From the IMG/VR virus record IMGVR_UViG_3300027736_000029, positions 40,267 to 104,266 of that record: a DNA stretch of 64,000 nt; one strand, given 5' to 3'. The stretch's first letter is position 1. Each line of letters begins with the position of its first letter. The notes beneath the pieces are model-generated. The model saw nothing but the letters and a program-made list of their open reading frames with translations. It did no database searches and was not told the DNA's origin. This stretch comes from a virus. A program made the position numbers and the translations under genes. Shown here one piece after another: positions 30,590 to 64,000 of the stretch.

Positions 30590-32929
30590 TTAACATGGTC
30601 CACCGTATGTACCTATCGCATTTATTTCACCATTACCAATAACTAAATAAACCGTCGAATTAGTACTGTTTGGATATCTAAATACCACACCATCTGGCGC
30701 TAAATTTGTTAAAGAATCATTAGTATAAACCGTTGCACCATCCACAAATCCTGGTGAAGCATTTGTATATAATGTTGCAAATCCTGTTATTCCATAAACC
30801 CCAATTGTACCTCCACTACATATTGTTGTCCCTGTTAATGTCCTTAATGATATTGAATTAGTTGAAACTGCACTTGATAAAGTGTGATTAACAACTCCTT
30901 GGCCTGTTGAGTTATTCACAACAACAGAACAATCTTTACCTGAAATGGTAGGTTGTGACGTAGATACTAATATGGTTTGAACCAATTGGGTAATACAACC
31001 ATTACTTCCTGTAGCACCAGTGGTTATTAACAATTGTGATGATGAAGTTCCACTAATTACATCACCATGTCCAATTGTTAAGTTATAAACTTGTGATTTA
31101 GTAGTTTTAACTTGAGTATATGGTGAACAATTTTCTCTTGTTGATGACTGTGATGTTGAATTAACAGTTGTTTGTATTAATGAGGTACCATTTTTATTAA
31201 CGGTAGTAGTGTTGGTAATTATACCACCACCAGGTCCGTCAACGTCTTGAACCGCATTAACATTTAACTTAAATGATATTGATGTACCAACAGGAAGTGC
31301 TGGTGTAACATCAACTTTCCAAGTTGCAACTTCATTATCCGCACTATAATTAACATCATTAATTAATTGAACTTTTATATTATATGTTGTTGCGATAGAT
31401 GATGAACCAATACTTATACCTGAGTTTAAAGTGTTTCCAACTGAGTCTTGTACAATAACAGTATAATCGTTTGCACATAATCCTTGGAATATATTACTCG
31501 TTTGATATGTGTTTCCATTATTAATTGAATAACTATAAGGTGGTACTCCATTGTATGTTGCAATAGTTATTGAACCATTACAGTTTTGAGTTCCTGGACA
31601 TGAACTATCTTGTTTAGTAATCTCAACTGATAATGGTGCATATGTCGGACAAGTTCCCTGTACCACATAAACAGTTGCATTCTGACCACCATACATACTC
31701 CATCCATTATCAGGTATGTTTGTTTGGTTGGTACTAACAGGTGTTCCTGTCGTAAACGTCCATCCAATGACTTCCCATCTTGATTGTAATGAACTCCAAG
31801 CGATTGATAGATTTACCGATTGATAAGTTGCCGACCACATTGGTTTTCCATTTGAATCGCCACTAGGAACAAACTGAATTGGACCATAAGCAATTGAACC
31901 TCTTACATATGTTAAACATAAGTTTGGCCAAACAGGAGTAGGTGTAATTGTTGGAGTAGGTGTAATTGTTTGTGTTGGTGTTTGTGACGGTGCAAATAAA
32001 TTACAAATAGTCGTTGAAGAATAATCACCATAATAATCCACAACTGTAACTTGATATGAACCTTCAGGTATTCCAACTAATGTTCTAGTTCTCTGACCTC
32101 CTGACCAATAATATGAATAAGGACTTGTTCCTCCTGTTACTTTTAAAGATAATACACCATCATTAGAATATTGATTTGATGGCATTTGAATTGGGTTACA
32201 TTGAACACCCATATCAAATAATGTTAGAACATCACATTCATTCTTCAATGAATAATCTTGTTTAAGTGATGTTGTTGGCGTTTGAGTTGGAGTTGAATTT
32301 GGAGTTGTACTTGGTGTTACAGTATTTGTCACCGTAGGAGTTACTGTCGGTGTTGGTGTTTGAGTTCTTGTAGGTGTCGGTGTTAAACATGAAGTTGTTG
32401 CAGGTACATTTAATTTTGTAATACCATTATAAGGTTGTCCATAATTGAATATTACAACGGTTCCAATTGTAAGGTTAGAACTTACAAAGTTTCCACAACA
32501 ATCGGTATAATAAACACTTGAAGTTGTTGTAATACCACTACCACAAATAATTGGTGTAGTTGTTGGTGTTGGGTTTGGCGTTCTTGTTACTGTTGGAGTA
32601 ACTGTTTTTGTTGGTGTATTTGTAGGAGTAATGTTTGGCGTTCTTGTTGGAAATTGAGTTGGAGTTATACTTGGTTCAGGTACGGTTTCACAAGGAGATA
32701 TTAATATACCATTATAGTTAATATAACCAGTACCTCCATTTTCAATATACACTTCATTACTAGTTGCGTATGAACCTGACGCTTGACATCCACACACACT
32801 ATAAAATTGACCAGCGCCAACAAGTGAACTTAAAAGGGTGGTACCGTCATTACAATCGTAATAATAAAAAATCTGATTTTGACCAGATTCATTCCACACC
32901 ATCCATCTGGTACAAGTAGTACAAGCCAT
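30590..32929 (-). CDS. Cys-rich, Thr-Pro-linker protein with SprB-like repeats (putative virion appendage)
   Basis: TPT tracts; GVLSLKVTGGTSPYSYYWS..L..GSYQVTVVD and GSITI...GVPPYSYSIN..F.GL..DYTVIVQD. Confidence 0.7.
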   Translation of the reverse strand: MACTTCTRWMVWNESGQNQIFYYYDCNDGTTLLSSLVGAGQFYSVCGCQASGSYATSNEVYIENGGTGYINYNGILISPCETVPEPSITPTQFPTRTPNITPTNTPTKTVTPTVTRTPNPTPTTTPIICGSGITTTSSVYYTDCCGNFVSSNLTIGTVVIFNYGQPYNGITKLNVPATTSCLTPTPTRTQTPTPTVTPTVTNTVTPSTTPNSTPTQTPTTSLKQDYSLKNECDVLTLFDMGVQCNPIQMPSNQYSNDGVLSLKVTGGTSPYSYYWSGGQRTRTLVGIPEGSYQVTVVDYYGDYSSTTICNLFAPSQTPTQTITPTPTITPTPVWPNLCLTYVRGSIAYGPIQFVPSGDSNGKPMWSATYQSVNLSIAWSSLQSRWEVIGWTFTTGTPVSTNQTNIPDNGWSMYGGQNATVYVVQGTCPTYAPLSVEITKQDSSCPGTQNCNGSITIATYNGVPPYSYSINNGNTYQTSNIFQGLCANDYTVIVQDSVGNTLNSGISIGSSSIATTYNIKVQLINDVNYSADNEVATWKVDVTPALPVGTSISFKLNVNAVQDVDGPGGGIITNTTTVNKNGTSLIQTTVNSTSQSSTRENCSPYTQVKTTKSQVYNLTIGHGDVISGTSSSQLLITTGATGSNGCITQLVQTILVSTSQPTISGKDCSVVVNNSTGQGVVNHTLSSAVSTNSISLRTLTGTTICSGGTIGVYGITGFATLYTNASPGFVDGATVYTNDSLTNLAPDGVVFRYPNSTNSTVYLVIGNGEINAIGTYGGPC

Positions 32930-32990
32930 TTACTTTAAAGTGTTTGTGTTGTTTAGTTTATTTATCATATAAGTATAATCTCTAATATTT

Positions 32991-33638
32991 TTATGGACAT
33001 AGTTGGAATTCAACAATAGCTCCTTGAGCATTAATTTTAACCACATAAAAATTTCCTCCAAAACTCATTTTAATGTACCTATTTCCACCGTTGTATGGAT
33101 TATATAGAGTATCATTAACAACCGTTTGATAAACTATCACACCAACCACAGGTGTCAAATTTGCTTGAGCAATGTATGTGTAATAATTAGTTAATGTGAT
33201 TGTGTTGGTACAAGTAGTTGCAGATGTTGCAGATACTTGATTACCAATAGGGTGTATTGAAATTACAGGAGTTGTTGTTGGTGTTGGTGTGTTAGTCGGA
33301 GTATATGTTTGAGTCGCAGTATTTGTGGGTGTATAAGAGGGTGTATTAGTTGGTGTTGATGTGTTTGTTGTAGTAACTGTTGGCGTGTTTGTTGGTGTTG
33401 GAGTTAATGTTAATGTTGGAGTTGGTGTAATTGGAATTACATATCCATCCACACAACTTTGAGTATCAACAATCTTTATAACAATATTCTGTTCATCGTA
33501 TGGTGGAGGAACACTAAATGTATATGGAAATACAGATACAGTTGATACGTAAACACAACTTGCACTCATTGAATCACAATAGTAGATTTCAACTGGTGTG
33601 TTAGCGGTTACGGATGTTATGGTTACTTGTTGACTCAT
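32991..33638 (-). CDS. Thr-Pro-linker two-domain protein (putative virion)
   Basis: Beta-rich N-domain, ~55 aa TPT tract, C-domain ending QLCP. Confidence 0.7.
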   Translation of the reverse strand: MSQQVTITSVTANTPVEIYYCDSMSASCVYVSTVSVFPYTFSVPPPYDEQNIVIKIVDTQSCVDGYVIPITPTPTLTLTPTPTNTPTVTTTNTSTPTNTPSYTPTNTATQTYTPTNTPTPTTTPVISIHPIGNQVSATSATTCTNTITLTNYYTYIAQANLTPVVGVIVYQTVVNDTLYNPYNGGNRYIKMSFGGNFYVVKINAQGAIVEFQLCP

Positions 33639-33651
33639 TTTAATTTATAGT

Positions 33652-33876
33652 TTAACATGGGACAACATCTTCAATCCCTGTTATTATACATCCATTATTA
33701 TCAATAACTTTTAACATATATTGAGTTGATGAATCGTATGGTGAAGGGATATCAAAAACATACGGAACGGTAGATATAGTTGCCATATAAAAACAACCCG
33801 TACCATCTCCCTGACATATATAAATGTCGTATGGTGTTGCACCTGTTATATTATTTATTGTTACTTGTATTGCCAT
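33652..33876 (-). CDS. small protein paralogous to the N-domain of 32991..33638
   Basis: QVTI..IT..TP..IY.C......C.Y..T.S..PY.F..P.PYD....K..D...C shared. Confidence 0.75.
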   Translation of the reverse strand: MAIQVTINNITGATPYDIYICQGDGTGCFYMATISTVPYVFDIPSPYDSSTQYMLKVIDNNGCIITGIEDVVPC

Positions 33877-33878: not shown

Positions 33879-36569
33879 TTAACAAGAATTAGTATTAACG
33901 TTTTGTTTTGCGGTTATGTATCCCGAAGTATTAATTTGAACCGCAGTTCCAAGATTTGATGATGTGTTTAATTTTAATACAACCCATAAATTATTACCAT
34001 TTGTTGGTACTGATGTAAATACATCATAAACTCTAACACCAACATTAAGTATTGTAGTGTTTGTATAATATGAAGTAAATGCCTTATAATTTAAACAAGC
34101 ATCTTGTGCTGAAATAGAATTAACTTCATCACCCATATATTTAACGGCCTGACCTTGGAAATTTAAACAATCAGTACAAGTATCAAAGACATCAGACACA
34201 ATTGATTGTGAACCAAAATAATTACCAGTATAAGTTATTGGTGACACCGTTGGAGGTGCAATATAATCAGTTGTAAACTGTCCAATATATTTCCAACATC
34301 TACCTTGATTATCTTGGAATGTTTGGTCAACAGTTAAATTGGTAAATGATGTAATTTTAATTGTTTGAATAACTTGAGTATTAACCAATTGTTCACCTAT
34401 TGGCTGACAACTTTCATAAACATAAACCCAATGTGGTGTAGGTGTCGGTGTTGATGTTGGTGTTTTTGTATTTGTCGGTGTTGATGTTGGTGTTCCTGGT
34501 GGTCGACTTGGCGTATTTGTAACTGTTTGCGTTGGAGTTTGAGTTGGTGTGTGAGTAGGTGTTGACGATGGGAAAACATTACAAGTACCACAACTAGAAG
34601 AAATTGCAATAATTTCATCAACATTACAATTAGATGAAATCGTATTACTTGTACCACTATAGGTTACACACATAAGACTACCATTAATAATAACTGACAT
34701 TGTAATACCAGTTGTAACAGGTGTTCCAGAATAAATTAAATTATCACTAGTATATAATTGGTCACCTGTTTCACAATCAACCAATATCTTAACGTTAACA
34801 CACTCGAATAATTCATCCAACATAACAAATGTTGCTTGTCCTTGAACATCAACAGTTTTTGTTAATGTAATTGTTGGTGTTGTCGTAGGAGTTGGTGTTG
34901 TTGAATTATATTGACATACCGAGAATGAAACACCTGTACCACTACAAGCATAACCTGTAGGTGTTGGTGTTGGGGTCACACCTAAAGATGTAACGTCAAA
35001 ATCAACATCACCACAATTCACACTTGGGGATGGTGTTGGCAATGGTTCCCAATCACAATCAAAGTAAGCGTTGAAATCAAATGGTTCACAATTAACAGGA
35101 CTTGGTGTTGGTGTGGGACAAGGTCCTCCATTAAAATAATTGGCTGAAATATCAGGACAAGTTGAATAACATGGTGTCGCACCTTCCAATAAACAAGTAC
35201 CACCTAATGATGTACTTAAACACCAATAACTACCAGTATAATAAACCACACCAAAATTAATTCCATCACCATTATAATAGAAATTTGAATTGTAAGTACC
35301 TGTTTGAGTATAGTTCCCACTATACCCTGATAAAGATGGTAATGTTGTTCTAAAACAATAAATTGAATCACATGCACCATTACTTGGTGTCGGTGTTGGC
35401 GTAAGAGTACTTGTTGGACTAACCGTTGGTGTCTGCGTCTGAGTTTGAGTAACCGTTGGTGTTGGAGTTGGTGTTGGACATGACGGTGCTCCAGTGAAAG
35501 TACTACCCACAGATGGATATAATAACCCTGTTGCAACATATGGTACAACCGTGGCATATCCATTAAAATAAGGACCACTAATTAAATAAACATCGCCAAT
35601 AGTTAATGTTCCTGGTACATTTTCATATCTAAATTGATTTGATGAATTTCCACATTCAGCAAATAAATATATATCGTAAGGTTCAGTTTGAGTTGGAGTT
35701 TGAGTTGGAGTATTTGTTGGTGTTTCAGTATTGGTAGGAGTTTGAGTATTCGTTACAGTTGGAGTTGGTGTTTCAGTATTAGTAGAAGTTGGTGTTGGTG
35801 TTTCGGTATTAGTTGGTGTTTGTGTTGGAGTTTCACTTGGAGTGTTTGTCGGTGTTTCAGTATTGGTAGGAGTTTGTGTAGGAGTTTCACTTGGAGTATT
35901 TGTTGGTGTTTCAGTATTTGTAGGAGTTACAGTTGGAGTTTCAGTATTAGTTGGTGTTGGTGTTACTATTTCATTGCAACAATTTATACCTGTTTGGTAA
36001 TAAGTTGAATTATCTGCGAGTGCTACTGCATCATTAACATAATATTGTAAAAAAATATATGTTGGAATTGTTGATGGACTTATACATACCTCATTAGTGT
36101 ATGTTCCAGCAGTATCATAATACTTATTTGTAATGCTGTACTCACCACAAGGAATATAAATTAACTCTACCTTATTATTGAAGAATGGTTCACTAACATT
36201 ACCAGTAGCATTATCAAGGTCAATTTGAGATATTGTGATTGTAATATATTCACAATTACAAGTTGGTGTTGGTGTCGGAGTTTTAGTTGGTGTAACAGTA
36301 TTAGTAGGTGTTATTGTAGGTGTTGGCGTTGGTGTTGGAGTAGTTGCCTGACATGTCGCACAATCAGGATGTCCAATAGAAACTGTTGCAACAGTATCTA
36401 TTGGTGATGAACCTACATTACCAATATATTCGTAGCATCCACCAGGTAATGCGCCCGTAAACGTAAAGGAATAACTAATACCGCCAGTTAAACCAGCTAA
36501 GGAACTTATAGAAACTTCATAAGAAACTAATGTATCACAAGATATTATTGTTATTACTGGAAATGCCAT
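33879..36569 (-). CDS. large Cys-rich, Thr-Pro mucin-like protein (putative virion appendage)
   Basis: Several [10 protein letters not shown] tracts separating Cys-containing domains. Confidence 0.75.
35686..35965 (-). repeat. coding tandem repeat ([18 protein letters not shown]-like)
   Basis: Thr at nearly every second residue over ~95 aa; 18-aa unit duplicated. Confidence 0.8.
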
Positions 36570-37017: not shown

Positions 37018-37446
37018 ATGGGTAGTATAAAAAACGTACAATTTGGTGAAAATGTTTTTGTTGTTGAACCAACAAACCTTTATGGTTGTAAGATTGGTAA
37101 CAATGTTAAGATTGGTCCATTTGTTGAAATTCAACGAGATTCAGAAATTGGGAATGATTCTATTATTAGTTCACACTCTTTCATACCTTCAGGTGTTAAA
37201 ATAGGTAACAATGTTTTTATCGGTCACGGAGTTATGTTTACCAATGACACATTTGACTCAGATTTAATAGAAAATTGGGAAATGAAAAAAACAATTATTG
37301 GTGACCGCGTTAGAATTGGTTCCAACTCAACAATTTTACCAGTCAAGATTGGTAATAACGTAATAATAGGTGCGGGTTCAGTCGTTACAAAAGACATACC
37401 TGATAATGTAACAGTTTATGGAAATCCGGCAAGAATTAAATCATAA
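37018..37446 (+). CDS. hexapeptide-repeat sugar N-acetyltransferase (WbpD/WlbB-like)
   Basis: Left-handed beta-helix repeats; VFIGHGVMFTND; IGAGSVVTKDIP..VYGNPAR. Confidence 0.9.
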   Translation: MGSIKNVQFGENVFVVEPTNLYGCKIGNNVKIGPFVEIQRDSEIGNDSIISSHSFIPSGVKIGNNVFIGHGVMFTNDTFDSDLIENWEMKKTIIGDRVRIGSNSTILPVKIGNNVIIGAGSVVTKDIPDNVTVYGNPARIKS

Positions 37447-38260
37447 AATTTGCCTAATTGGATATGGTTATTGGGGTAAAATACTCCATAAAAATTTATT
37501 ATCATTAGGGTATAATGATATCACAATTGTTGATGTTGTTTTAGACAACTTCAATCTATTGGATGATAGTTATTCACATTATTTTGTTGTAACACCATTT
37601 ACAACACACCACGAAATATTATTGAAATTATCTGAATTTAAGAACAAAAGAATTTGGTGTGAAAAACCTTTGGTTAACACATATAAAGAATCAACCGAAA
37701 TATATTCATTAATGGAACAAAATAACAATATGTTATTTGTTGATTGGGTTTATACGTTCAATCCATGTGTTGATAAAATCAGAAAAATTGTGTCTAAGAA
37801 AAAAATTAAACAAGTCATTCTTAACAGAACCAATGACGGTCCAAAAAGATTTGACACAAGTTCAATCCACGATTTATCATCACATGATTTATCCATTTTA
37901 TATCACATATTTGGTAGAACAAATTTTGATTTTACTTGGAATGAATTTTCAGTTAAATCAAATGAAGACTTTGGTTCCAATATTAGTTGGTATTATAAAA
38001 GTGGATTGCAAGTTATAATTAATTCATCTTGGCAACATAAAACAAAAAACAGGGTATCATTATTCATTACTGAAGATGATGAAGTTATCGTTTTTGATGA
38101 TGTAAAAAAAGTAATCATTACTAATAATGGTGTTGAAGATTTTTCAGACTCTCCATCCCCAATCCATATTGGTATGAGACACTTCTTCAGTGACAATAAT
38201 TTTGATTCAAATAAAGAAATAACACTTAAAATAACAAAAAACTTAGAACATGCAATTTAA
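37418..38260 (+). CDS. Gfo/Idh/MocA oxidoreductase (WbpB/WlbA-like)
   Basis: IGYGYWG, TP..TH, CEKPL, DLSSHDLS. Confidence 0.85.
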   Translation: MEIRQELNHKICLIGYGYWGKILHKNLLSLGYNDITIVDVVLDNFNLLDDSYSHYFVVTPFTTHHEILLKLSEFKNKRIWCEKPLVNTYKESTEIYSLMEQNNNMLFVDWVYTFNPCVDKIRKIVSKKKIKQVILNRTNDGPKRFDTSSIHDLSSHDLSILYHIFGRTNFDFTWNEFSVKSNEDFGSNISWYYKSGLQVIINSSWQHKTKNRVSLFITEDDEVIVFDDVKKVIITNNGVEDFSDSPSPIHIGMRHFFSDNNFDSNKEITLKITKNLEHAI

Positions 38261-55422: not shown

Positions 55423-55688
55423 ATACTTGTAGGATATCCTGTAATTGTCATTCCTCTATCGGAAGCAATTGCTTGTATAATTACCTTATCATCAGTTCCC
55501 CAAGTTTGTAAGACTGATGGTGATAATTTATATGTTTCACCAAATACATATTCTCCTGAAGAATTCAAGAGGTCATATTTGACATAACATTCTGAAGCCA
55601 TTAAATCATATCTACTGATACTTGCTCTAAGATATGAGGCTTGTTTAGTTAAAATTGATACCGGTGTAATTGATGCTAATAATGCCAT
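55419..55688 (-). CDS. hypothetical protein (fibre-associated?)
   Basis: 89 aa ORF downstream of the fibre genes; TATTTATA 4 nt upstream. Confidence 0.7.
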   Translation of the reverse strand: MALLASITPVSILTKQASYLRASISRYDLMASECYVKYDLLNSSGEYVFGETYKLSPSVLQTWGTDDKVIIQAIASDRGMTITGYPTSI

Positions 55689-56408: not shown

Positions 56409-59400
56409 TTACTTTTTAAGTTCGTTAATTTGTTGTTGTAAATTATCCATTTTGTTTGATAATTCTTTAATTGCTTCAATTAACAATCCACTCATGTTAC
56501 CGTATGCCACTGACATTATTCCTGTTTCTTTATCTGTATTTACAACTTCAGGTAAAACTTCATTTACATCTTGTGCGATAACACCAGCGTATCTTCTGTC
56601 ATTGTCATTATCAATATCGGTTCTTACATAAGTAACACCGTTAATTTGTTGAATTTTACTTAAAGCTTCATCAATTACCTTAACATCTCCTTTAATTCTT
56701 GCGTCTGAGTATGCTACAATATCAGCCGATGCGTATATTGAAATACCACTCACGTTAGCATTTACGTGTAATGGATAACTTGGTGATGTTGTTGCAACAC
56801 CTAATCTACTATTTGTAATGTCTGCGTATAGGAAAGATGTTGATTGAATTGTTGAACCGTTAACTGTGTATACCAAGTAGTTAGGTTGGTTTGTGAATAC
56901 ACCACCACTGATACCACTTGTACCCGATGCTGGTGACAAACCTGATGAACCTGCGGTTCCTGATGTACCCGAAGTTCCTGAAGTTCTTGATGCTCCTGAT
57001 GTACCAGCAGCTCCTGACGAACCTGATGTTCCTGATGTTCCTGATGTTCCTGAAGTTTGTGATGCTCCTGATGCTCCCGCATTTCCTGCAGCTCCTGCCG
57101 AACCTGATGTACCACTTGTACCTGAAGTTCCTGAAGTTTGTGATGCTCCTGATGCTCCCGCATTTCCTACCGCTCCCGCAGTACCACTTGTACCCGATGT
57201 TCCTGAAGTTTGAGATACACCTGATGCTCCTGCAGTTCCCGCCGCTCCTGATGAACCTGAAGTACCTGATGTACCTGAAGTTCCTGAAGTTTGAGATACT
57301 CCTGATGCTCCTGCGTTTCCTGATGCTCCTGCCGAACCTGATGTACCTGATGTTCCTGATGTTCCTGAAGAACCACTTGAACCTGATGCTCCTGAGTTAC
57401 CTGAGTTACCTGCCGCTCCTGATGTTCCTGATGTACCTGATGTTCCTGAAGAACCACTTGAACCTGATGCTCCCGATGTACCAGCCGCTCCTGAAGCTCC
57501 TGATGTTCCACTAGTTCCTGATGTACCTGAAGTTTGTGATGCTCCTGAAGCTCCTGCAGCTCCTGCCGCTCCCGATGAACCATTTGTACCTGATGTACCT
57601 GATGTACCTGAAGTTTGTGATGCTCCTGAAGCTCCTGCAGCTCCTGCCGCTCCCGATGAACCATTTGTACCTGATGTACCTGATGTACCTGAAGTTTGTG
57701 ATGCTCCTGAAGCTCCTGCAGCACCTGCCGCTCCCGATGAACCTGACGTTCCTGATGTTCCTGAAGTTCCTGAAGTTTGAGACGCTCCTGATGTACCAAC
57801 AGCTCCCGATGCTCCCGATGTACCACTCGTACCCGATGTACCTGAAGTTTGTGATGCTCCTGATGCTCCTGCAGCTCCCGCAGTACCACTTGTACCTGAT
57901 GTTCCTGAAGTTTGAGATGCTCCTGACGCTCCTGCTGCTCCCGCAGTACCTGATGTACCTGACGTTCCTGAAGTTTGTGATGCTCCTGATGCTCCAGCCG
58001 CTCCTGATGAACCTGAAGTTCCACTTGTTCCTGAAGAACCCGACGCTCCTGATGCTCCCGATGAACCTGAAGAACCACTTGAACCTGATGTTCCTGAAGT
58101 ACCTGAAGTTTGTGACGCTCCTGAAGAACCAGCATTTCCTGACGCTCCCGCAGTACCACTAGTACCTGATGTACCTGAGGTTTGTGATGCTCCTGATGCT
58201 CCTGCCGCTCCTGATGAACCCGAAGTTCCACTTGTTCCTGAAGAACCTGACGCTCCTGATGCTCCCGATGAACCTGAAGAACCACTTGAACCAGATGTTC
58301 CTGATGTTCCACTAGTTTGTGACGCTCCTGAAGTACCAGCATTTCCTGATGCTCCTGCAGTACCACTTGTACCTGATGTACCTGAAGTTTGTGATGCTCC
58401 TGATGCTCCTGCCGCTCCTGATGAACCTGAAGTTCCACTTGTTCCTGAAGAACCTGACGCTCCTGATGCTCCCGATGAACCTGAAGAACCACTTGAACCT
58501 GATGTTCCTGATGTACCTGAAGTTTGTGACGCTCCTGAAGTACCAGCATTTCCTGATGCTCCTGCAGTACCACTTGTACCTGATGTACCTGAAGTTTGTG
58601 ATGCTCCTGAAGCTCCTGCCGCTCCTGATGAACCTGAAGTTCCACTTGTTCCTGAAGAACCTGACGCTCCTGATGCTCCCGATGAACCTGAAGAACCACT
58701 TGAACCTGATGTTCCTGATGTACCTGAAGTTTGTGACGCTCCTGAAGTACCAGCATTTCCTGATGCTCCCGCAGTACCACTTGTACCTGATGTACCTGAA
58801 GTTTGTGATGCTCCTGAAGCTCCTGCCGCTCCTGATGAACCACTTGTACCTGAAGTACCGCTAGTTCCTGAAGAACCTGATGCTCTTGAAATTCCTGATG
58901 AACCGTCAGAACCACTTGAACCTGATGTTCCTGAAGTTCCACTAGTTCCTGAAGTACGTGAAAGTCCTGAAGAACCCGCTGAACCTGAAGAACCACTTGA
59001 ACCTGATGTTCCTGATGTACCTGATGTTCCAGAAGTCTGACTCAATCCTGAAGAACCTGCCGAACCTGAAGAACCACTTGAACCTGAAGTTCCTGAAGTA
59101 CCTGAAGTTTGTGATGCTCCTGAAGCTCCTGCAGTTCCTGCCGCTCCTGATGAACCTGATGTTCCTGATGTACCTGATGTTCCTGAAGTTTGCGATACTC
59201 CTGCCGCTCCTGCTGAACCTGAAGAACCACTTGAACCTGATGTACCAGAAGTACCTGATGTTCCTGAAGAACCAGCAGAACCTGAACTTCCTGAAGAACC
59301 TGATGTTCCTGATGTACCTGAAGTTTGAGATGCTCCTGACGTACCTGCCACTCCTGATGCTCCTGATGTTCCACTAGTACCTGATGTTCCTGATGTTTGA

Positions 59401-62400
59401 GATGCTCCTGATGCTCCCGCAGAACCTGAAGAACCGCTTGAACCTGATGTTCCACTAGTTCCTGATGTTCCTGAAGTCTGACTCAATCCTGAAGAACCTG
59501 CAGAGCCGCTTGAACCTGATGTTCCGCTAGTTCCTGATGTTCCACTAGTTCCTGAAGAACCTGATGTTCCTGAAGAACCCGAAGAGCCACTTGAACCTGA
59601 TGTTCCACTAGTACCTGATGTTTGAGATGCTCCTGATGTTCCAGCTGAACCTGAAGAACCGCTTGAACCTGATGTTCCTGATGTTCCACTAGTTCCTGAA
59701 GTTTGAGAAAGTCCTGAAGAACCTGCAGAACCACTTGAACCTGATGTTCCGCTAGTTCCTGATGTTCCACTAGTTCCTGAAGAACCTGATGTTCCACTTG
59801 AACCTGAAGAACCACTTGAACCAGATGTTCCTGATGTACCTGAAGTCTTAGATGCTCCTGAAGTACCTGCTGAACCGTCAGAACCACTTGAACCTGATGT
59901 TCCTGATGTTCCACTAGTTCCTGAAGTCTTAGATGCTCCTGAAGTACCCGCTGAACCGTCAGAACCACTTGAACCTGATGTTCCACTAGTTCCTGATGTT
60001 CCTGAAGTACGTGAAAGTCCTGAAGAACCTGCCGAACCTGAAGAACCGCTTGAACCTGATGTTCCGCTAGTTCCTGATGTTCCTGAAGTCTGAGAAAGTC
60101 CTGAAGAACCCGCTGAACCTGAAGAACCGCTTGAACCTGATGTTCCTGAAGTACCGCTAGTTCCTGAAGTCTGACTCAATCCTGAAGAACCTGCTGAACC
60201 ACTTGAACCACTTGAACCTGATGTTCCTGATGTACCTGATGTTCCTGAAGTTTGTGAAAGTCCTGAAGAACCTGCAGAACCTGAAGAACCACTTGAACCT
60301 GATGTTCCTGAAGTACCGCTAGTTCCTGAAGTTTGAGAAAGTCCTGAAGAACCTGCAGAACCACTTGAACCTGATGTTCCACTAGTTCCTGATGTTCCAC
60401 TTGAACCTGCTGAACCTGAAGAACCACTTGAACCTGATGTTCCACTAGTTCCTGAAGTCTGAGATGCTCCTGATGTTCCTGCTGAACCTGAAGAACCGCT
60501 TGAGCCTGATGTTCCTGAAGTACCGCTAGTTCCTGAAGTTTGAGAAAGTCCTGAAGAACCTGCAGAACCACTTGAACCTGATGTTCCACTAGTTCCTGAT
60601 GTTCCACTTGAACCTGCTGAACCTGAAGAACCACTTGAACCTGATGTTCCACTAGTTCCTGAAGTCTGAGATGCTCCTGATGTTCCTGCTGAACCTGAAG
60701 AACCGCTTGAACCTGATGTTCCTGAAGTACCGCTAGTTCCTGAAGTTTGAGAAAGTCCTGAAGAACCTGCTGAACCTGAAGAACCACTTGAACCTGATGT
60801 TCCTGAAGTACCCGATGTTCCTGAAGAACCAGATGTTCCTGAAGAACCTGATGTTCCCGAAGAACCACTTGAACCACTTGAACCTGAAGTTCCTGATGTT
60901 CCTGAAGTTTTAGATGCTCCTGAAGTACCCGCTGAACCGTCAGAACCACTTGAACCTGATGTTCCGCTAGTTCCTGATGTTCCTGAAGTACGTGAAAGTC
61001 CTGAAGAACCTGCTGAACCTGAAGAACCACTTGAACCTGATGTTCCACTAGTTCCTGATGTTCCTGAAGTCTGACTCAATCCTGAAGAACCTGCAGAACC
61101 ACTTGAACCTGATGTTCCTGATGTTCCGCTAGTACCACTTGTTCCTGAAGAACCTGATGTTCCGCTAGTTCCTGAAGAACCTGATGTTCCTGAAGAACCT
61201 GAAGAACCACTTGAACCTGATGTTCCACTAGTTCCTGATGTTTGAGATGCTCCTGATGTTCCCGCAGAACCTGAAGAACCACTTGAACCCGATGTTCCGC
61301 TAGTACCACTTGTTCCTGAAGTTTGAGAAAGTCCTGAAGAACCTGCTGAACCACTTGAACCTGATGTTCCTGATGTTCCACTAGTTCCTGAAGAACCTGC
61401 CGAACCTGAAGAACCACTTGAACCTGATGTTCCGCTAGTTCCTGATGTTTGAGATGCTCCTGATGTTCCCGCAGAACCTGAAGAACCACTTGAACCTGAT
61501 GTTCCGCTAGTTCCTGATGTTCCTGAAGTCTGACTCAATCCTGAAGAACCTGCAGAACCACTTGAACCTGAAGTTCCACTAGTTCCTGATGTTCCACTTG
61601 AACCTGCTGAACCTGAAGAACCTGCTGAACCTGATGTTCCTGAAGTACCTGAAGTTTGAGATGCTCCTGATGTTCCTGCTGAACCTGAAGAACCACTTGA
61701 ACCTGATGTACCTGAAGTACCCGATGTTCCTGAAGTTTGAGAAAGTCCTGAAGAACCTGCTGAACCTGAAGAACCTGATGTTCCTGAAGTTCCACTAGTT
61801 CCTGAAGAACCAGATGTTCCTGATGTTCCACTTGTTCCTGAAGAACCTGATGTTCCTGAAGAACCTGAAGAACCGCTCGAACCTGATGTTCCTGAAGTAC
61901 CACTTGTTCCTGAAGTCTGACTCAACCCTGAAGAACCTGCTGAACCACTTGAACCTGATGTTCCACTAGTACCACTTGTTCCTGAAGAACCTGATGTTCC
62001 TGATGTTCCACTAGTTCCTGAAGAACCTGATGTTCCACTTGAACCTGAAGAACCACTTGAACCTGATGTTCCGCTAGTTCCTGATGTACCACTTGTTCCT
62101 GAAGAACCTGATGTTCCACTTGAACCTGAAGAACCACTTGAGCCAGATGTTCCACTTGTTCCTGATGTACCACTTGTTCCTGAAGAACCTGATGTTCCAC
62201 TTGACCCTGAAGAACCACTTGAACCAGATGTTCCACTTGTTCCTGATGTTCCTGAAGTCTTAGACGCTCCTGAAGTACCCGCAGAACCGTCAGAACCACT
62301 AGAACCTGAGGTTCCGCTAGTTCCTGATGTTCCTGAAGTTTTAGATGCTCCTGAAGTACCCGCTGAACCGTCAGAACCACTTGAACCTGATGTTCCGCTA

Positions 62401-63998
62401 GTTCCTGATGTTCCTGAAGTACGTGAAAGTCCTGAAGAACCTGCTGAACCTGAAGAACCACTTGAACCTGATGTTCCACTAGTTCCTGATGTTCCTGAAG
62501 TCTGACTCAATCCTGAAGAACCTGCAGAACCACTTGAACCTGATGTTCCTGATGTTCCGCTAGTACCACTTGTTCCTGAAGAACCTGATGTTCCGCTAGT
62601 TCCTGAAGAACCTGATGTTCCTGAAGAACCTGAAGAACCACTTGAACCTGATGTTCCACTAGTTCCTGATGTTTGAGATGCTCCTGATGTTCCCGCAGAA
62701 CCTGAAGAACCACTTGAACCCGATGTTCCGCTAGTACCACTTGTTCCTGAAGTTTGAGAAAGTCCTGAAGAACCTGCTGAACCACTTGAACCTGATGTTC
62801 CTGATGTTCCACTAGTTCCTGAAGAACCTGCCGAACCTGAAGAACCACTTGAACCTGATGTTCCGCTAGTTCCTGATGTTTGAGATGCTCCTGATGTTCC
62901 CGCAGAACCTGAAGAACCACTTGAACCTGATGTTCCGCTAGTTCCTGATGTTCCTGAAGTCTGACTCAATCCTGAAGAACCTGCAGAACCACTTGAACCT
63001 GAAGTTCCACTAGTTCCTGATGTTCCACTTGAACCTGCTGAACCTGAAGAACCTGCTGAACCTGATGTTCCTGAAGTACCTGAAGTTTGAGATGCTCCTG
63101 ATGTTCCTGCTGAACCTGAAGAACCACTTGAACCTGATGTACCTGAAGTACCCGATGTTCCTGAAGTTTGAGAAAGTCCTGAAGAACCTGCTGAACCTGA
63201 AGAACCTGATGTTCCTGAAGTTCCACTAGTTCCTGAAGAACCAGATGTTCCTGATGTTCCACTTGTTCCTGAAGAACCTGATGTTCCTGAAGAACCTGAA
63301 GAACCGCTCGAACCTGATGTTCCTGAAGTACCACTTGTTCCTGAAGTCTGACTCAACCCTGAAGAACCTGCTGAACCACTTGAACCTGATGTTCCACTAG
63401 TACCACTTGTTCCTGAAGAACCTGATGTTCCTGATGTTCCACTAGTTCCTGAAGAACCTGATGTTCCACTTGAACCTGAAGAACCACTTGAACCTGATGT
63501 TCCGCTAGTTCCTGATGTACCACTTGTTCCTGAAGAACCTGATGTTCCACTTGAACCTGAAGAACCACTTGAGCCAGATGTTCCACTTGTTCCTGATGTA
63601 CCACTTGTTCCTGAAGAACCTGATGTTCCACTTGACCCTGAAGAACCACTTGAACCAGATGTTCCACTTGTTCCTGATGTTCCTGAAGTCTTAGACGCTC
63701 CTGAAGTACCCGCAGAACCGTCAGAACCACTTGAACCAGATGTTCCACTTGTTCCTGATGTTCCTGAAGTCTTAGACGCTCCTGAAGTACCCGCAGAACC
63801 GTCAGAACCACTAGAACCTGATGTTCCGCTAGTTCCTGATGTTCCTGAAGTACGCGAAAGTCCTGAAGAACCTGCAGAACCTGAAGAACCACTTGAACCT
63901 GATGTTCCGCTAGTACCTGATGTTCCTGAAGTTTGAGAAAGTCCTGAAGAACCTGCTGAACCTGAAGAACCTGATGTTCCGCTAGTTCCTGATGTTCC
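56409..63998 (-). CDS. giant Gly-X-Y (Ser/Thr-rich) repeat fibre with C-terminal Peptidase S74 chaperone; 5' end outside window
   Basis: Frame stays open past the TTG at 63356 to the window edge (>=2529 codons); C-terminal RLGV....P..PLHV, then YSDARIK, GVIAQDV..VLPEVV, V.YGNM.GLLIEAIKEL. Confidence 0.92.
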   Translation of the reverse strand, partial: GTSGTSGTSGSSGSAGSSGLSQTSGTSGTSGTSGSSGSSGSAGSSGLSRTSGTSGTSGTSGSSGSDGSAGTSGASKTSGTSGTSGTSGSSGSDGSAGTSGASKTSGTSGTSGTSGSSGSSGSSGTSGSSGTSGTSGTSGTSGSSGSSGSSGTSGSSGTSGTSGTSGTSGSSGSSGSSGTSGSSGTSGTSGTSGSSGTSGTSGTSGSSGSAGSSGLSQTSGTSGTSGTSGSSGSSGSSGTSGSSGTSGTSGTSGSSGTSGTSGTSGSSGSAGSSGLSQTSGTSGTSGTSGSSGSSGSAGTSGASQTSGTSGTSGSAGSSGSAGSSGTSGTSGTSGSSGSAGSSGLSQTSGTSGTSGTSGSSGSSGSAGTSGASQTSGTSGTSGSSGSSGSAGSSGTSGTSGTSGSSGSAGSSGLSQTSGTSGTSGTSGSSGSSGSAGTSGASQTSGTSGTSGSSGSSGSSGTSGSSGTSGTSGSSGTSGTSGTSGTSGSSGSAGSSGLSQTSGTSGTSGTSGSSGSSGSAGSSGLSRTSGTSGTSGTSGSSGSDGSAGTSGASKTSGTSGTSGTSGSSGSDGSAGTSGASKTSGTSGTSGTSGSSGSSGSSGTSGSSGTSGTSGTSGTSGSSGSSGSSGTSGSSGTSGTSGTSGTSGSSGSSGSSGTSGSSGTSGTSGTSGSSGTSGTSGTSGSSGSAGSSGLSQTSGTSGTSGTSGSSGSSGSSGTSGSSGTSGTSGTSGSSGTSGTSGTSGSSGSAGSSGLSQTSGTSGTSGTSGSSGSSGSAGTSGASQTSGTSGTSGSAGSSGSAGSSGTSGTSGTSGSSGSAGSSGLSQTSGTSGTSGTSGSSGSSGSAGTSGASQTSGTSGTSGSSGSSGSAGSSGTSGTSGTSGSSGSAGSSGLSQTSGTSGTSGTSGSSGSSGSAGTSGASQTSGTSGTSGSSGSSGSSGTSGSSGTSGTSGSSGTSGTSGTSGTSGSSGSAGSSGLSQTSGTSGTSGTSGSSGSSGSAGSSGLSRTSGTSGTSGTSGSSGSDGSAGTSGASKTSGTSGTSGSSGSSGSSGTSGSSGTSGSSGTSGTSGTSGSSGSSGSAGSSGLSQTSGTSGTSGTSGSSGSSGSAGTSGASQTSGTSGTSGSSGSSGSAGSSGTSGTSGTSGSSGSAGSSGLSQTSGTSGTSGTSGSSGSSGSAGTSGASQTSGTSGTSGSSGSSGSAGSSGTSGTSGTSGSSGSAGSSGLSQTSGTSGTSGTSGSSGSSGSAGSSGLSQTSGTSGTSGTSGSSGSSGSAGSSGLSQTSGTSGTSGTSGSSGSSGSAGSSGLSQTSGTSGTSGTSGSSGSSGSAGSSGLSRTSGTSGTSGTSGSSGSDGSAGTSGASKTSGTSGTSGTSGSSGSDGSAGTSGASKTSGTSGTSGSSGSSGSSGTSGSSGTSGTSGTSGTSGSSGSAGSSGLSQTSGTSGTSGTSGSSGSSGSAGTSGASQTSGTSGTSGSSGSSGSSGTSGSSGTSGTSGTSGTSGSSGSAGSSGLSQTSGTSGTSGTSGSSGSSGSAGASGASQTSGTSGTSGTSGASGVAGTSGASQTSGTSGTSGSSGSSGSAGSSGTSGTSGTSGSSGSSGSAGAAGVSQTSGTSGTSGTSGSSGAAGTAGASGASQTSGTSGTSGSSGSSGSAGSSGLSQTSGTSGTSGTSGSSGSSGSAGSSGLSRTSGTSGTSGTSGSSGSDGSSGISRASGSSGTSGTSGTSGSSGAAGASGASQTSGTSGTSGTAGASGNAGTSGASQTSGTSGTSGSSGSSGSSGASGASGSSGTSGTSGSSGAAGASGASQTSGTSGTSGTAGASGNAGTSGASQTSGTSGTSGSSGSSGSSGASGASGSSGTSGTSGSSGAAGASGASQTSGTSGTSGTAGASGNAGTSGASQTSGTSGTSGSSGSSGSSGASGASGSSGTSGTSGSSGAAGASGASQTSGTSGTSGTAGASGNAGSSGASQTSGTSGTSGSSGSSGSSGASGASGSSGTSGTSGSSGAAGASGASQTSGTSGTSGTAGAAGASGASQTSGTSGTSGTAGAAGASGASQTSGTSGTSGTSGASGAVGTSGASQTSGTSGTSGTSGSSGAAGAAGASGASQTSGTSGTSGTNGSSGAAGAAGASGASQTSGTSGTSGTNGSSGAAGAAGASGASQTSGTSGTSGTSGASGAAGTSGASGSSGSSGTSGTSGTSGAAGNSGNSGASGSSGSSGTSGTSGTSGSAGASGNAGASGVSQTSGTSGTSGTSGSSGAAGTAGASGVSQTSGTSGTSGTAGAVGNAGASGASQTSGTSGTSGTSGSAGAAGNAGASGASQTSGTSGTSGTSGSSGAAGTSGASRTSGTSGTSGTAGSSGLSPASGTSGISGGVFTNQPNYLVYTVNGSTIQSTSFLYADITNSRLGVATTSPSYPLHVNANVSGISIYASADIVAYSDARIKGDVKVIDEALSKIQQINGVTYVRTDIDNDNDRRYAGVIAQDVNEVLPEVVNTDKETGIMSVAYGNMSGLLIEAIKELSNKMDNLQQQINELKK

Positions 63999-64000
63999 AC
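56905..64000 (-). repeat. coding 9-nt/triplet repeat array (SGT/SGS/AGA) with higher-order 81, 207 and 1431 bp units
   Basis: Gly at every third residue, periodically replaced by Q/R/K; near-identical blocks ~60888-62300 and ~62319-63731. Confidence 0.95.

Follow-up and report, generated by a model that had tools for sequence, protein, structure and literature searches.

What is the acceptor of the sugars that are handled by a large glycosylation island in a phage genome? The window analysed here is a stretch of 64,000 nucleotides from a large uncultured phage contig, which accounts for approximately 36% of the genome. In this window, 18 tightly packed ORFs fill positions 37018-55422 on the plus strand. 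This island is flanked by Thr-Pro-rich, Cys-rich proteins on its left and by a fibre of more than 2500 aa with an S74 domain on its right, as had been reported in a preliminary description, which counted approximately 17 island genes and proposed that the phage glycosylates its own structural proteins. This interpretation is partly supported by the present analysis. Genomic association suggests, with a probability of roughly 0.6, that the island is a cytoplasmic O-glycosylation system for the collagen-like tail fibre of the phage itself. The ORFs of the island are as follows.

37018..37446, plus: hexapeptide-repeat sugar N-acetyltransferase (Pfam Hexapep 6.7e-23; NeuD/PglB/VioB subfamily 4e-23)
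37418..38260, plus: GFO/IDH/MocA oxidoreductase (Pfam 8.8e-7)
38250..39359, plus: DegT/DnrJ/EryC1 sugar aminotransferase (Pfam 2.4e-81)
39362..40078, plus: 238-aa protein without assigned family (relatives in 12 loci)
40094..41101, plus: GT9 enzyme, 335 aa, related to BAHT and LPS heptosyltransferases (Pfam Glyco_transf_9 6e-15)
41091..42287, plus: stand-alone BAHT, 415-aa ORF (TIGR04414 246 bits)
42289..42936, plus: 215-aa protein resembling only the N-terminal part of BAHT, beta-barrel and start of the N-lobe (TIGR04414 positions 55-154, E 1.6e-9)
42933..44519, plus: NodU/CmcH-type carbamoyltransferase (Carbam_trans_C PF16861 2.3e-52; Carbam_trans_N PF02543 3e-32)
44516..45097, plus: 193-aa protein, no family
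45101..47044, plus: fusion of GT4 glycosyltransferase and FkbM methyltransferase (Pfam Glycos_transf_1 1.2e-8; Methyltransf_21 1.2e-17)
47063..48094, plus: GT-A-like paralogue, 343 aa (BLASTP 1.3e-4 and 5e-3 to paralogues)
48087..49031, plus: GT-A-like paralogue, 314 aa, most divergent of the four (BLASTP 1.4e-5 to the ORF at 51908)
49061..49759, plus: probable class-I methyltransferase, 232 aa (Pfam Methyltransf_31 6.4e-4, below cut-off)
49762..50778, plus: GT-A-like paralogue, 338 aa, with C-terminal beta-sandwich (AlphaFold model, mean pLDDT 59)
50781..51911, plus: GT2 glycosyltransferase, predicted soluble (Pfam Glycos_transf_2 7.2e-18; no hydrophobic segment)
51908..52939, plus: GT-A-like paralogue, 343 aa (38% identical to the ORF at 49762, with which it shares the basis for its fold)
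52946..55048, plus: 700-aa ORF, GT4 (residues ~1-340) fused to BAHT (~354-697) (TIGR04414 308 bits)
55045..55422, plus: DUF6165 protein, last gene of the island (Pfam DUF6165 4.9e-10)

Recognised sugar-related domains are detected in 11 of the 18 ORFs, which encode a hexapeptide acetyltransferase, a GFO/MocA oxidoreductase, a DegT aminotransferase, a GT9 enzyme, a bacterial autotransporter heptosyltransferase (BAHT), an N-terminal fragment of BAHT, a NodU-type carbamoyltransferase, a GT4-FkbM fusion, a weakly matched class-I methyltransferase, a GT2 enzyme and a GT4-BAHT fusion. The other seven are the four GT-A-like paralogues, the DUF6165 protein and two proteins without a family. The methyl-, carbamoyl- and acetamido-decorating enzymes listed in the preliminary description are thus recovered by domain matches, with the Pfam match of the methyltransferase lying below the cut-off. 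The best named relative of the oxidoreductase is UDP-GlcNAc 3-dehydrogenase (NF040723, 5.9e-15; 56 bits, with the cut-off at 450), and every NCBIfam match of the aminotransferase lies under its equivalog cut-off. The carbamoyltransferase contains both its N- and C-terminal domains and matches NodU (2.6e-41) at 142 bits, under the equivalog cut-off of 1000. The 335-aa GT9 enzyme has no N-terminal barrel; it carries an IGD motif and, at its C-terminus, a four-Cys motif, and matches WaaF (1PSW, 6.5e-7), TIGR02195 (2.3e-11) and TIGR04414 (3.9e-6). The 215-aa fragment gives BLASTP matches to both BAHT ORFs and is kept at the same position, with 45% identity, in the closest relative of the window (G036). 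Searches for families and relatives of the 193-aa protein, including those in the fetched loci, gave no match. Residues 1-245 of the 338-aa paralogue give modest VIA-align Z scores of 8-9.3 to GT-A glycosyltransferases and nucleotidyltransferases, and from this model the four paralogues probably share a GT-A-like fold. A cytidylyltransferase-like gene is located elsewhere on the contig.

None of the 18 ORFs contains a hydrophobic 19-residue stretch at the transmembrane threshold or a signal-peptide-like N-terminus, and none is a flippase, polymerase, ligase, polyprenyl-phosphate transferase or membrane protein. All products of the island are therefore predicted to be soluble, in agreement with the earlier remark that a flippase, Wzy and a membrane glycosyltransferase are missing.

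BAHT is defined here by NCBIfam TIGR04414, for which the curated equivalog cut-off is 200 bits. The 415-aa ORF, which opens at TTG 41040 and probably starts at ATG 41091, scores 246 bits over model positions 27-371, and the 700-aa ORF scores 308 bits over positions 17-373, nearly the whole model in both cases. With 26 bits, the 335-aa GT9 enzyme stays under the cut-off, as does the 215-aa fragment with 37 bits. The 415-aa ORF aligns with TibC 4RAP (E 2e-40), and the 700-aa ORF aligns with TibC 4RB4 over its residues 392-695 (E 3.4e-58). These results confirm the BAHT assignment made earlier and place both ORFs, by sequence, in the Aah/TibC family of soluble protein O-glycosyltransferases.

Residue positions were taken from HMMER alignments to 4RAP and 4RB4, and their roles from PMC4358343. 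In TibC, Asp110 acts as the catalytic base, Thr226 and Lys230 contact the beta-phosphate, Trp305 contacts O4 of the heptose, and Arg286 contacts N1 of adenine, which gives specificity for an ADP-activated sugar (PMC4358343). Asp110, Lys230 and Trp305 are kept in both window BAHTs and are invariant in 17 phage copies, as are the cysteines aligned with the iron-finger positions 339, 342, 358 and 370. The 415-aa copy keeps all five donor/catalytic residues of TibC, with Ser at position 226, where the 700-aa copy has Thr, and has Ser at position 300, as does Aah. Position 286 is Arg in the 415-aa copy and Thr in the 700-aa copy, and the Arg is replaced in most phage copies, in a part of the alignment that is of moderate quality. 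The thumb region is approximately 9 residues shorter in both window BAHTs; the gap takes in Phe265 alone in the 700-aa copy and Phe265 and Val266 in the 415-aa copy, and certain other phage BAHTs carry an insert at this position. The tip of this beta-hairpin thumb (Phe265/Val266) is required for ring assembly and activity of TibC, and the serines that BAHTs are known to modify lie in strand-loop-strand motifs of beta-helical autotransporters, which are held inside the dodecameric ring (PMC4358343). A collagen-like helix differs greatly from such a substrate. This difference, the loss of the thumb tip in both window copies and the change of Arg286 to Thr in the fused copy and most phage copies all count against glycosylation of the fibre. 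The classical BAHTs of bacteria group in a clade of their own (support 99), and fibres of the type described below are absent from their loci; in this tree, the 415-aa BAHT is placed on the viral side, at the tip of a long branch. Among the proteins flanking the island, no autotransporter Pfam family is reported and no signal peptide is seen. The gmhA gene is not found on the contig, which covers ~36% of the genome, and the first sugar may be one other than heptose.

The genes to the right of the island, from the end of the contig inwards, are as follows.

56409..63998, minus: collagen-like tail fibre, >2529 aa (Pfam Collagen E 1e-239; Peptidase_S74 9.5e-14)
55714..56403, minus: 229-aa protein encoded directly downstream of the fibre gene, no family
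55419..55688, minus: 89-aa ORF that ends the fibre operon, sharing 4 bases with the end of the island

The contig stops within the fibre gene, whose 5' end lies beyond it, so that 2529 aa is a minimum length, which is possibly affected by repeat assembly. Residues 1-2355 consist of Gly-[Thr/Ser/Ala]-[Ser/Ala] triplets and are followed by a short globular region and the S74 intramolecular chaperone domain (PF13884, 9.5e-14, residues 2431-2486). This domain begins with SDARIK, which we take to be the Ser/Lys dyad motif. Of 785 triplets, 719 begin with Gly, in a single register throughout, and the 66 breaks are one triplet long, with Gln, Lys or Arg in place of Gly. In the Gly-X-Y runs, residue counts give Thr 318, Ser 264 and Ala 93 at X, and Ser 611 and Ala 91 at Y, with Pro at neither position. 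The fibre therefore has the glycine at every third residue that is expected of a collagen, but not the richness in Pro/Hyp at X and Y. Its 2529 residues include 963 Ser and 398 Thr, and the serines are encoded by both TCN and AGY codons. The single register of Gly and the use of both classes of Ser codons suggest that the periodicity is selected at the protein level. The preliminary description was correct on the S74 domain and the length of more than 2500 aa, but its "Gly-Ser/Thr fibre" is a strict Gly-X-Y collagen-like array, rather than a protein merely rich in these residues. Matches to the last 170 aa are found in tail-fibre genes of 1735 phage records, and a sequence scan detects neither a transmembrane segment nor a signal peptide. 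The 229-aa protein has no Pfam or PHROG family and no relative in the fetched loci.

The association between BAHT and this fibre type was scored within 10 kb of BAHT at 79 viral BAHT loci, which were clustered at 70% identity. The fibre type is present at 48 of the 79 loci and in 31 of 36 clusters, or in 25 of 30 after removal of those clusters to which the fibre pattern had led. Distances between BAHT and the fibre are as short as 33 bp, and gene order and fusions vary. In the reverse test, BAHT is present at 9 of 119 loci with the fibre DNA pattern and at none of 118 loci with a Gly-Pro-X pattern; at the level of viral records, it is present in 16 of 47 with the fibre pattern and in 1 of 48 with the Gly-Pro-X pattern (p = 3e-5), and this sole positive control record also has a Gly-Ser-Ser fibre. 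The co-occurrence that the preliminary description had proposed to look for is thus observed for the Gly-Ser/Thr fibre in both directions, as compared with the Gly-Pro-X control. BAHT is not detected in about two thirds of the fibre-pattern records, most of which are fragments. Two complete genomes of this phage group are consistent with the link, one having both BAHT and the fibre pattern and the other neither. Adjacency is not obligatory; BAHT and the fibre are approximately 45 kb apart in one genome (G022), and in another (G020) the distance, counted across the record ends, is approximately 47 kb. The pairing is also found in a 735-kb phage and in the cultured Microcystis phage Mel-JY01, where the neighbouring gene carries the annotation "structural protein" and the terminase is close by. 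These results indicate that the link between BAHT and the fibre is general across many phage lineages; no paper describing such a pairing in phages was found in the literature. Other island genes recur as well. The GT4 part of the GT4-FkbM protein (residues 1-400) has relatives at 77 of the 79 loci and is a near-universal partner of phage BAHT, and DUF6165 is a frequent companion (25 of 79 loci; 87% identity in the closest relative). A segment related to the 238-aa protein is fused behind a GT4 domain in other phages, such as LR756501, and the 232-aa methyltransferase has a 58%-identical relative at one locus (L007) and a related segment fused into the BAHT protein of Mel-JY01.

If the island acts on the fibre, BAHT would add the first sugar to Ser/Thr hydroxyl groups of the triplets after translation and before virion assembly, and the 700-aa protein would combine a protein O-glycosyltransferase that initiates the glycan with an enzyme that extends it. 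The chain could then be extended by the fused GT4 domain, the GT4-FkbM enzyme, the barrel-less GT9, the GT2 and the four GT-A-like paralogues. The oxidoreductase, aminotransferase and acetyltransferase would provide a 3-acetamido sugar such as UDP-GlcNAc3NAc, and the glycan would be capped by methyl and carbamoyl groups. The product would be a fibre of up to ~0.67 micrometres with a dense glycan coat, which may stabilise a predicted proline-free triple helix, shield the fibre or mediate adhesion. In Riftia collagen, galactosyl-threonine contributes to stability (PMC10141479).

The proteins to the left of the island are alternative candidates for the acceptor.

33879..36569, minus: 896-aa protein with Thr-Pro linkers and 36 Cys (translation; no Pfam family)
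32991..33638, minus: 215-aa protein of the same conserved block (phrog_15511, function not assigned, 1.1e-11)
30590..32929, minus: 779-aa protein with long Thr-Pro linkers, 23 Cys and SprB repeats (Pfam SprB 7.4e-8)

That the Thr-Pro-linker, Cys-rich proteins (30590-36569) are additional or even the main acceptors, perhaps with one BAHT-type enzyme per class of substrate, is a tentative possibility. Neither Thr-Pro protein has a signal peptide, so that both would share a compartment with the enzymes. The 896-aa gene is transcribed away from the island, and such genes are also transcribed away from the first gene of the island at one group of loci (L008) and a further locus (L015), where relatives of the 896-aa protein adjoin BAHT. 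Thr-Pro stretches are found at 21 of 79 viral BAHT loci, as compared with 8 of 119 and 7 of 118 loci in the controls, and their median number per record is 16 in BAHT-positive records and 5.5 in the others (p = 0.008); relatives of the barrel-less GT9 are found at 10 of the 21 Thr-Pro-positive loci and 7 of the 58 other loci (p = 0.0015), all of these comparisons being uncorrected for shared descent. However, the positive loci are mostly those of the closest relatives of the window, and in the closest of these (G036) approximately 14 kb with about 10 other genes separates the relatives of these proteins from the island. The 779-aa protein belongs to a large metagenomic family (893 relatives, all unnamed), which keeps 200-aa and 734-aa neighbours at ~74 of 80 loci but has BAHT within 10 kb at only 4. 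BAHT is absent from 12 of the 22 records of this family, including a complete 322-kb genome that also does not contain the fibre pattern. The family is thus tied to the 734-aa/200-aa block rather than to BAHT, against the link to the island assumed in the preliminary description, and Pfam, PHROG and further searches gave nothing that would place these proteins in the virion or justify calling them structural.

It is unlikely that BAHTs glycosylate yet other proteins, such as small Ser/Thr-rich virion proteins or host proteins that are cytoplasmic or bound for the surface, with the fibre a mere neighbour in a tail-fibre module. Proteins with 20-28% Ser+Thr often adjoin BAHT, including the "structural protein" of Mel-JY01, and known BAHT acceptors are beta-structured, like many phage fibre tips and spikes; but the Gly-[Thr/Ser]-Ser tract is the only feature found to recur with BAHT across clusters of 35-60% identity, in varied gene orders and fusions, and Gly-Pro-X collagen fibres, which lie in similar modules, show no link to BAHT. 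Still less probable is the reading in which the fibre genes are unrelated and the island remodels the envelope of the infected host, whether the LPS core, the capsule or a further glycolipid, perhaps as a means of preventing superinfection. Statistically, BAHT is linked to a fibre type that the phages encode rather than to a host group, the characterised BAHTs covered in PMC4358343 all act on proteins, and the membrane and transfer functions named above are missing from all 18 ORFs. LPS heptosyltransferases are themselves soluble or peripheral, so that the lack of membrane segments does not exclude such enzymes; the 335-aa GT9 resembles LPS heptosyltransferase II (1PSW, TIGR02195), and GT2, GT4, aminotransferase and acetyltransferase genes are typical of O-antigen loci too. 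Hypermodification of phage DNA with sugars for restriction evasion is highly improbable, even though glucosylation of DNA is the best-known role of glycosyltransferases in phages, genes of DNA metabolism are located upstream in the window and the four GT-A-like paralogues have no assigned acceptor. We know of no DNA-modification system with so many transferase domains together with an aminotransferase and a carbamoyltransferase; here, these two enzymes accompany up to approximately eleven candidate transferase domains, several of them weakly assigned. Diverse DNA glycans have recently been reported, according to work cited in PMC12619734. BAHTs are, however, protein enzymes, a thymidylate-synthase-like hydroxymethylase is not found on the contig (~36% of the genome), and the link to the fibre type would be left unexplained.

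Glycosylation of the fibre by the island would most closely resemble the TibC-TibA and Aah-AIDA-I systems of E. coli, whose enzymes are soluble and cytoplasmic, belong to the same family by TIGR04414 and alignment, and have the same Asp, Lys, Trp and four Cys positions. In both cases, the gene for the enzyme adjoins that for a long repetitive Ser-rich protein able to take many sugars. Unlike TibC and Aah, the enzymes described here are phage-encoded, form a separate branch from the classical bacterial enzymes and are usually fused to transferases or methyltransferases, in proteins of up to ~2000 aa. Compared with TibC, the dodecamer thumb is deleted in the window copies and the adenine-reading Arg is lost in most phage copies. 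Heptose is the sole sugar described for TibC and Aah in PMC4358343, whereas many extending and decorating enzymes are encoded here. The candidate acceptor is a collagen-like fibre rather than a secreted beta-helical autotransporter.

In streptococcal serine-rich-repeat loci, clustered cytoplasmic transferases modify a very long Ser-rich repeat protein before its export; the initiator is a GT4-type GtfA/B complex that adds GlcNAc, and the loci include an accessory Sec system. This analogy was drawn in the preliminary description; the initiating enzymes differ, and nothing like accessory Sec is seen here. Glycosyltransferases of mycobacteriophages, few in number, are reported to act in the host cytoplasm on virion proteins of the phage that encodes them, at C-terminal extensions of capsid and tail-tube subunits (Freeman et al. 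2023, Cell Host Microbe; cited in PMC12619734); compared by description, the acceptor proposed here is a fibre, and the island is much larger. Pathways of the WbpB/WbpE/WbpD type lead to 2,3-diacetamido sugars. The adjacent GFO-type oxidoreductase, DegT aminotransferase and hexapeptide N-acetyltransferase at 37018-39359 match this pathway at the level of enzyme class, with all NCBIfam scores far under the equivalog cut-offs, and, unlike in that pathway, a uronic-acid dehydrogenase is not seen. Mimivirus encodes collagen-like proteins together with enzymes for their glycosylation, as well as its own pathways for rare amino and methylated sugars; its L230 protein hydroxylates lysine and then adds glucose to the hydroxylysine, and giant viruses have gene clusters for the glycosylation of their fibrils (PMC9614988). 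L230 is not a Ser/Thr O-glycosyltransferase of the GT9/BAHT type, and the host of Mimivirus is eukaryotic. The triplets of BclA from Bacillus anthracis contain proline, its sugar anthrose belongs to the amino sugars and is formed with the help of an aminotransferase, and its transferases are, to our knowledge, not of the BAHT family. BclA is a spore-surface protein, whereas the window fibre is a virus protein. In the exosporium, BclA forms a trimeric collagen-like fibre with dense O-glycosylation along its triplet region, and the capping sugar, anthrose, is made by a dedicated pathway encoded by the anthrose operon (PMC10050317).

The window takes up the final 64 kb of one IMG/VR virus record, 104,266 bp long (GC 0.33), the completeness of which is estimated by CheckV at about 36%, suggesting that the genome size is near 290 kb. 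The genes upstream of the sugar-gene island include those for a primase, an SbcC-like nuclease and a DNA methyltransferase, showing that the contig is of phage character; a calcineurin-like phosphoesterase encoded upstream is possibly the SbcD partner of the SbcC-like protein. The contig has no close cultured phage: no match is obtained when 25 kb is compared with cultured and deposited phages by megablast, or when the 734-aa neighbour of the Thr-Pro proteins is used as a query for tblastn. Neither gmhA nor a thymidylate-synthase-like gene is found on the contig, which represents about 36% of the genome. The contig end falls within the fibre gene. Circularity of the contig, which would place the fibre N-terminus at the contig start, is ruled out, because end repeats are absent and the contig start has unrelated reading frames. 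The same contig carries a further, small sugar cluster at G000:C1:10526-12832, approximately 27-30 kb before the window start, which encodes a 240-aa GT2, a 139-aa cytidylyltransferase-like protein and a 337-aa protein without assignment.

Features of the window (position, strand, description)
4925-6283, minus, leucine-rich-repeat protein
18102-19526, minus, protein with an Eco57I-like methylase domain
20236-22653, minus, SbcC-like protein
24131-24910, minus, calcineurin-like phosphoesterase
27737-30547, minus, 200-aa and 734-aa proteins, forming a conserved block with the Thr-Pro proteins at 30590-36569, minus
30590-32929, minus, 779-aa Cys-rich Thr-Pro protein
33879-36569, minus, 896-aa Cys-rich Thr-Pro protein
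37018-55422, plus, island of 18 tightly packed ORFs
40094-41101, plus, 335-aa GT9
41091-42287, plus, 415-aa BAHT (Aah/TibC-type autotransporter heptosyltransferase family, TIGR04414)
42289-42936, plus, 215-aa BAHT-N-terminal-like protein
52946-55048, plus, 700-aa GT4-BAHT fusion
56409-63998, minus, collagen-like fibre

On sequence and profile evidence, both BAHT ORFs are members of this family. They score 246 and 308 bits against TIGR04414, for which the curated equivalog cut-off is 200, and the TibC structures align to them with E values of 2e-40 and 3.4e-58. When the residue roles reported for TibC (PMC4358343) are transferred to the alignment, the catalytic Asp110, Lys230, Trp305 and the four cysteines of the iron finger are present in both copies and invariant in 17 phage homologues, and position 300 of the 415-aa copy is Ser, as in Aah. 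The beta-hairpin thumb of TibC is required for the dodecameric ring and for action on TibA, and Arg286 reads the adenine of ADP-heptose (PMC4358343). The tip of this thumb is lost within a nine-residue deletion in both window copies, and Arg286, in a stretch where the alignment is of moderate quality, is retained in the 415-aa copy, but is replaced by Thr in the fused copy and in most phage copies. The two proteins therefore belong to the family, but their oligomeric state and donor may differ from those of TibC.

The other island ORFs recognised with Pfam and NCBIfam encode a hexapeptide acetyltransferase, a GFO/MocA oxidoreductase (best named relative in NCBIfam, UDP-GlcNAc 3-dehydrogenase), a DegT aminotransferase, the 335-aa GT9, the 215-aa protein, a NodU-type carbamoyltransferase, a fusion of GT4 with an FkbM methyltransferase, a weakly matching class-I methyltransferase, a GT2 and a DUF6165 protein. 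The set of extending and decorating enzymes is unusually large. The 335-aa GT9 lacks the N-terminal barrel but has an IGD motif of catalytic type and, at its C-terminus, a four-Cys motif. The 215-aa ORF lies two genes downstream and resembles just the BAHT barrel and the start of the N-lobe. The positions of both are conserved in G036, the closest relative of the window, and they might work jointly as a split BAHT. One operon thus combines two full BAHTs with a relative that has no barrel and a fragment that has only the barrel. Four further ORFs are mutual paralogues, for which a structure model of mean pLDDT 59 gives modest matches, probably representing a GT-A-like fold followed by a C-terminal beta-sandwich; the assignment of a "GT25-like" enzyme in the preliminary description is dropped. 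Seven island ORFs and two small ORFs on the fibre side have no PHROGs match, and the 238-aa, 193-aa and 229-aa ORFs give nothing further from Pfam at E values up to 1; two of the 18 island ORFs are left without any assignment. None of the 18 ORFs contains a hydrophobic 19-residue stretch at the transmembrane threshold or a signal-peptide-like start, and therefore the earlier claim that export and membrane parts are absent from the island holds.

The candidate acceptor is the fibre, of which at least 2529 residues are encoded; this length is a minimum, and repeat assembly could distort the figure. Residues 1-2355 form 785 triplets, 719 of which start with Gly in one register throughout, with mostly Thr or Ser at X, mostly Ser at Y and no Pro at either position. 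The remaining 66 triplets start with Gln (52), Lys (7) or Arg (7), and occur singly and evenly spread, at intervals of about 36 residues. Breaks of one triplet at such regular spacing could serve as hinges or as points of recognition. The 9-bp DNA repeat is conserved to just 63% and Ser is encoded by both TCN and AGY codons, indicating that the periodicity is maintained at the protein level. The computed length of the array is about 0.67 micrometres, if it is helical as collagen is. The C-terminus is an S74 intramolecular chaperone and matches tail-fibre genes in 1735 phage records.

The preliminary description proposed that co-occurrence of the enzymes with Gly-Ser/Thr fibres be examined across related phages, and the result is positive whether the enzyme or the fibre is taken as the starting point. 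Relatives of the phage BAHT domain profile are found on at least 585 viral contigs, and the same profile, run against 1.84 billion representative proteins, matches 958 clusters at E 1e-30 for the family as a whole, where the best matches are mostly long multi-domain proteins. Among the 79 best viral BAHT loci, 48 have, at a distance of up to 10 kb, a Gly-[Thr/Ser]-Ser tract. When the enzymes are clustered at 70% identity, the tract is present in 31 of 36 clusters (25 of 30 if clusters found via the fibre pattern are excluded), and for four of the five negative clusters the contig ends beside the gene or gives less than the full 10-kb flanks. For the reverse comparison, fibre loci were chosen solely by the DNA pattern for (Gly-Thr-Ser)3(Gly-Ser/Thr-Ser/Thr)2, and control loci by that for (Gly-Pro-X)5. 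A BAHT is present in 9 of the 119 fibre-pattern loci, as compared to 0 of the 118 control loci. At the level of whole records, for which 50 loci per pattern gave 47 and 48 records respectively, the counts are 16/47 and 1/48 (Fisher p = 3e-5), and the sole positive control record also has a Gly-Ser-Ser fibre. Of two complete genomes of the window's phage group, that of 326 kb has a BAHT and a massive fibre-pattern signal, whereas that of 322 kb has neither. Two further phages with the pairing are Mel-JY01, a cultured phage of Microcystis, and a metagenomic phage of 735 kb.

The gaps between BAHT and fibre range from 33 bp to 9 kb, with variable orientations and fusions. In two whole records, however, the distance is about 45 kb (G022, behind loci L015 and L438) and about 47 kb (G020, the 326-kb complete record behind locus L424, read as circular), indicating that adjacency is common but not required. 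In 77/79 loci BAHT is accompanied by its most constant partner, the GT4 domain of the GT4-FkbM ORF, and DUF6165 is present in 25/79. Comparison of the loci marks the amino-sugar trio, the GT2 and the carbamoyltransferase as accessories of the window's lineage.

In the Mel-JY01 record (PP395634), "hypothetical" genes are annotated on the minus strand at 1-651 and 739-2298. On the plus strand of 1-3052, an unannotated frame (2-3052) stays open for at least 1016 aa and encodes a Gly-Thr/Ser-Ser collagen-like protein, which starts at the first bases of the record and contains 202 triplets, including a run of 149 Gly-periodic ones. The strand annotated at this place in the deposited record is probably the wrong one, and the gene may continue across the ends of the record. 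The BAHT fusion of this phage is encoded at 4750-8430. In IMGVR_UViG_3300046010_015054 (locus L325), a long Gly-Pro-Ile/Gln collagen ORF adjoins a Gly-Ser/Thr-Ser collagen ORF, and a BAHT is encoded elsewhere in the record.

The Thr-Pro proteins adjoin the island both in the window and in two groups related to it. BAHT loci contain Thr-Pro stretches more often than control loci do, with the positives being mostly the nearest relatives of the window. GT9 relatives and higher Thr-Pro counts both accompany BAHT presence in statistics that ignore shared descent. G036 shares with the window the gene order fibre, DUF6165, GT4-BAHT ... GT4-FkbM, carbamoyltransferase, barrel fragment, BAHT, GT9, and about ten other genes lie between the island and the Thr-Pro proteins. 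The family of the 779-aa protein has 893 unnamed relatives. Approximately 74 of 80 viral loci with such a relative keep the 734-aa and 200-aa neighbours, but just 4 of the 80 have a BAHT within 10 kb, and BAHT is absent from 12 of 22 whole records with this family, including a complete genome. The Thr-Pro proteins, which had been considered together with the fibre, are therefore not general partners of BAHT. The family and structure searches give no indication that they are virion components. The 734-aa neighbour is an all-beta multidomain protein without a recognisable fold match: its AlphaFold model (pLDDT 59) has no PDB match below E 1e-3, its sole BFVD match is an uncharacterised phage homologue, and the Atlas search is uninformative.

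In the tree, the classical BAHTs of bacteria (Burkholderiaceae, Acetobacteraceae, Selenomonadaceae, Lentisphaerota) group in a single clade with good support, and Gly-[Thr/Ser]-Ser tracts are absent from their loci. Every viral BAHT is located on the opposite side, alongside metagenome-bin contigs of mixed phyla. Two short bin contigs named Sediminibacterium and Chitinophaga (L220 and L221; binned as Chitinophagaceae) carry BAHTs that adjoin viral copies with short branches (0.03-0.06 changes per column), and these contigs are probably phage contigs within bacterial bins. Together with SprB repeats, the Chitinophagaceae-binned contigs hint at a Bacteroidota host.

To our knowledge, the only role described for BAHT enzymes is the virulence-linked modification of autotransporters in bacteria, and glycosylation of phage-particle proteins has been shown only for a few mycobacteriophages. 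The present comparison indicates that the family has a large phage branch, paired with one particular kind of fibre. A literature search joining (autotransporter) heptosyltransferases or TibC with phages and collagen-like fibres finds nothing relevant; virion glycosylation is known for mycobacteriophages (cited in PMC12619734), and giant viruses glycosylate collagen-like proteins via different chemistry (PMC9614988). The enzyme family itself is known; what appears to be new is its carrier, together with the candidate acceptor and the fusions.

Soluble BAHTs and a collagen-like fibre, statistically paired with each other, are best explained by cytoplasmic O-glycosylation of the phage's own fibre, to which we assign a probability of roughly 0.6. 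According to this mechanism, BAHT would start glycans on the Ser and Thr residues of the triplets in the cytoplasm, ahead of assembly, and the fused and neighbouring transferases would lengthen the chains. The oxidoreductase, aminotransferase and acetyltransferase trio would supply an acetamido sugar, and methyl and carbamoyl groups would cap the chains. Such glycosylation is chemically reasonable, because BclA's collagen-like region is densely glycosylated (PMC10050317) and galactosyl-threonine contributes to the stability of Riftia collagen (PMC10141479). The main weaknesses are that the known BAHT acceptors are very different in shape, that the thumb is missing and that the donor may be another than that of TibC. 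A real link would mean that glycan-coated fibres are carried by many aquatic phages, with a bearing on adsorption, host range and stability, as well as on recognition by grazers or host defences, and these fibres would provide a natural model of a proline-free collagen helix. The link is directly testable, because the enzymes are soluble and one carrier, Mel-JY01, has been cultured.

A bolder and rather unlikely reading is that the sugar of the phage fibre is structural, not decorative, with dense O-glycosylation by BAHT from a donor other than ADP-heptose doing what hydroxyproline does in animal collagen. The proline-free fibre could then fold to a stable triple helix only once it is glycosylated. 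If true, this would represent a "glyco-collagen" that is virus-encoded and widespread, and the branch of enzymes making it would belong to a family so far known only from bacterial adhesins. The role thus proposed for the sugar is similar to that reported for galactosyl-threonine in Riftia collagen.
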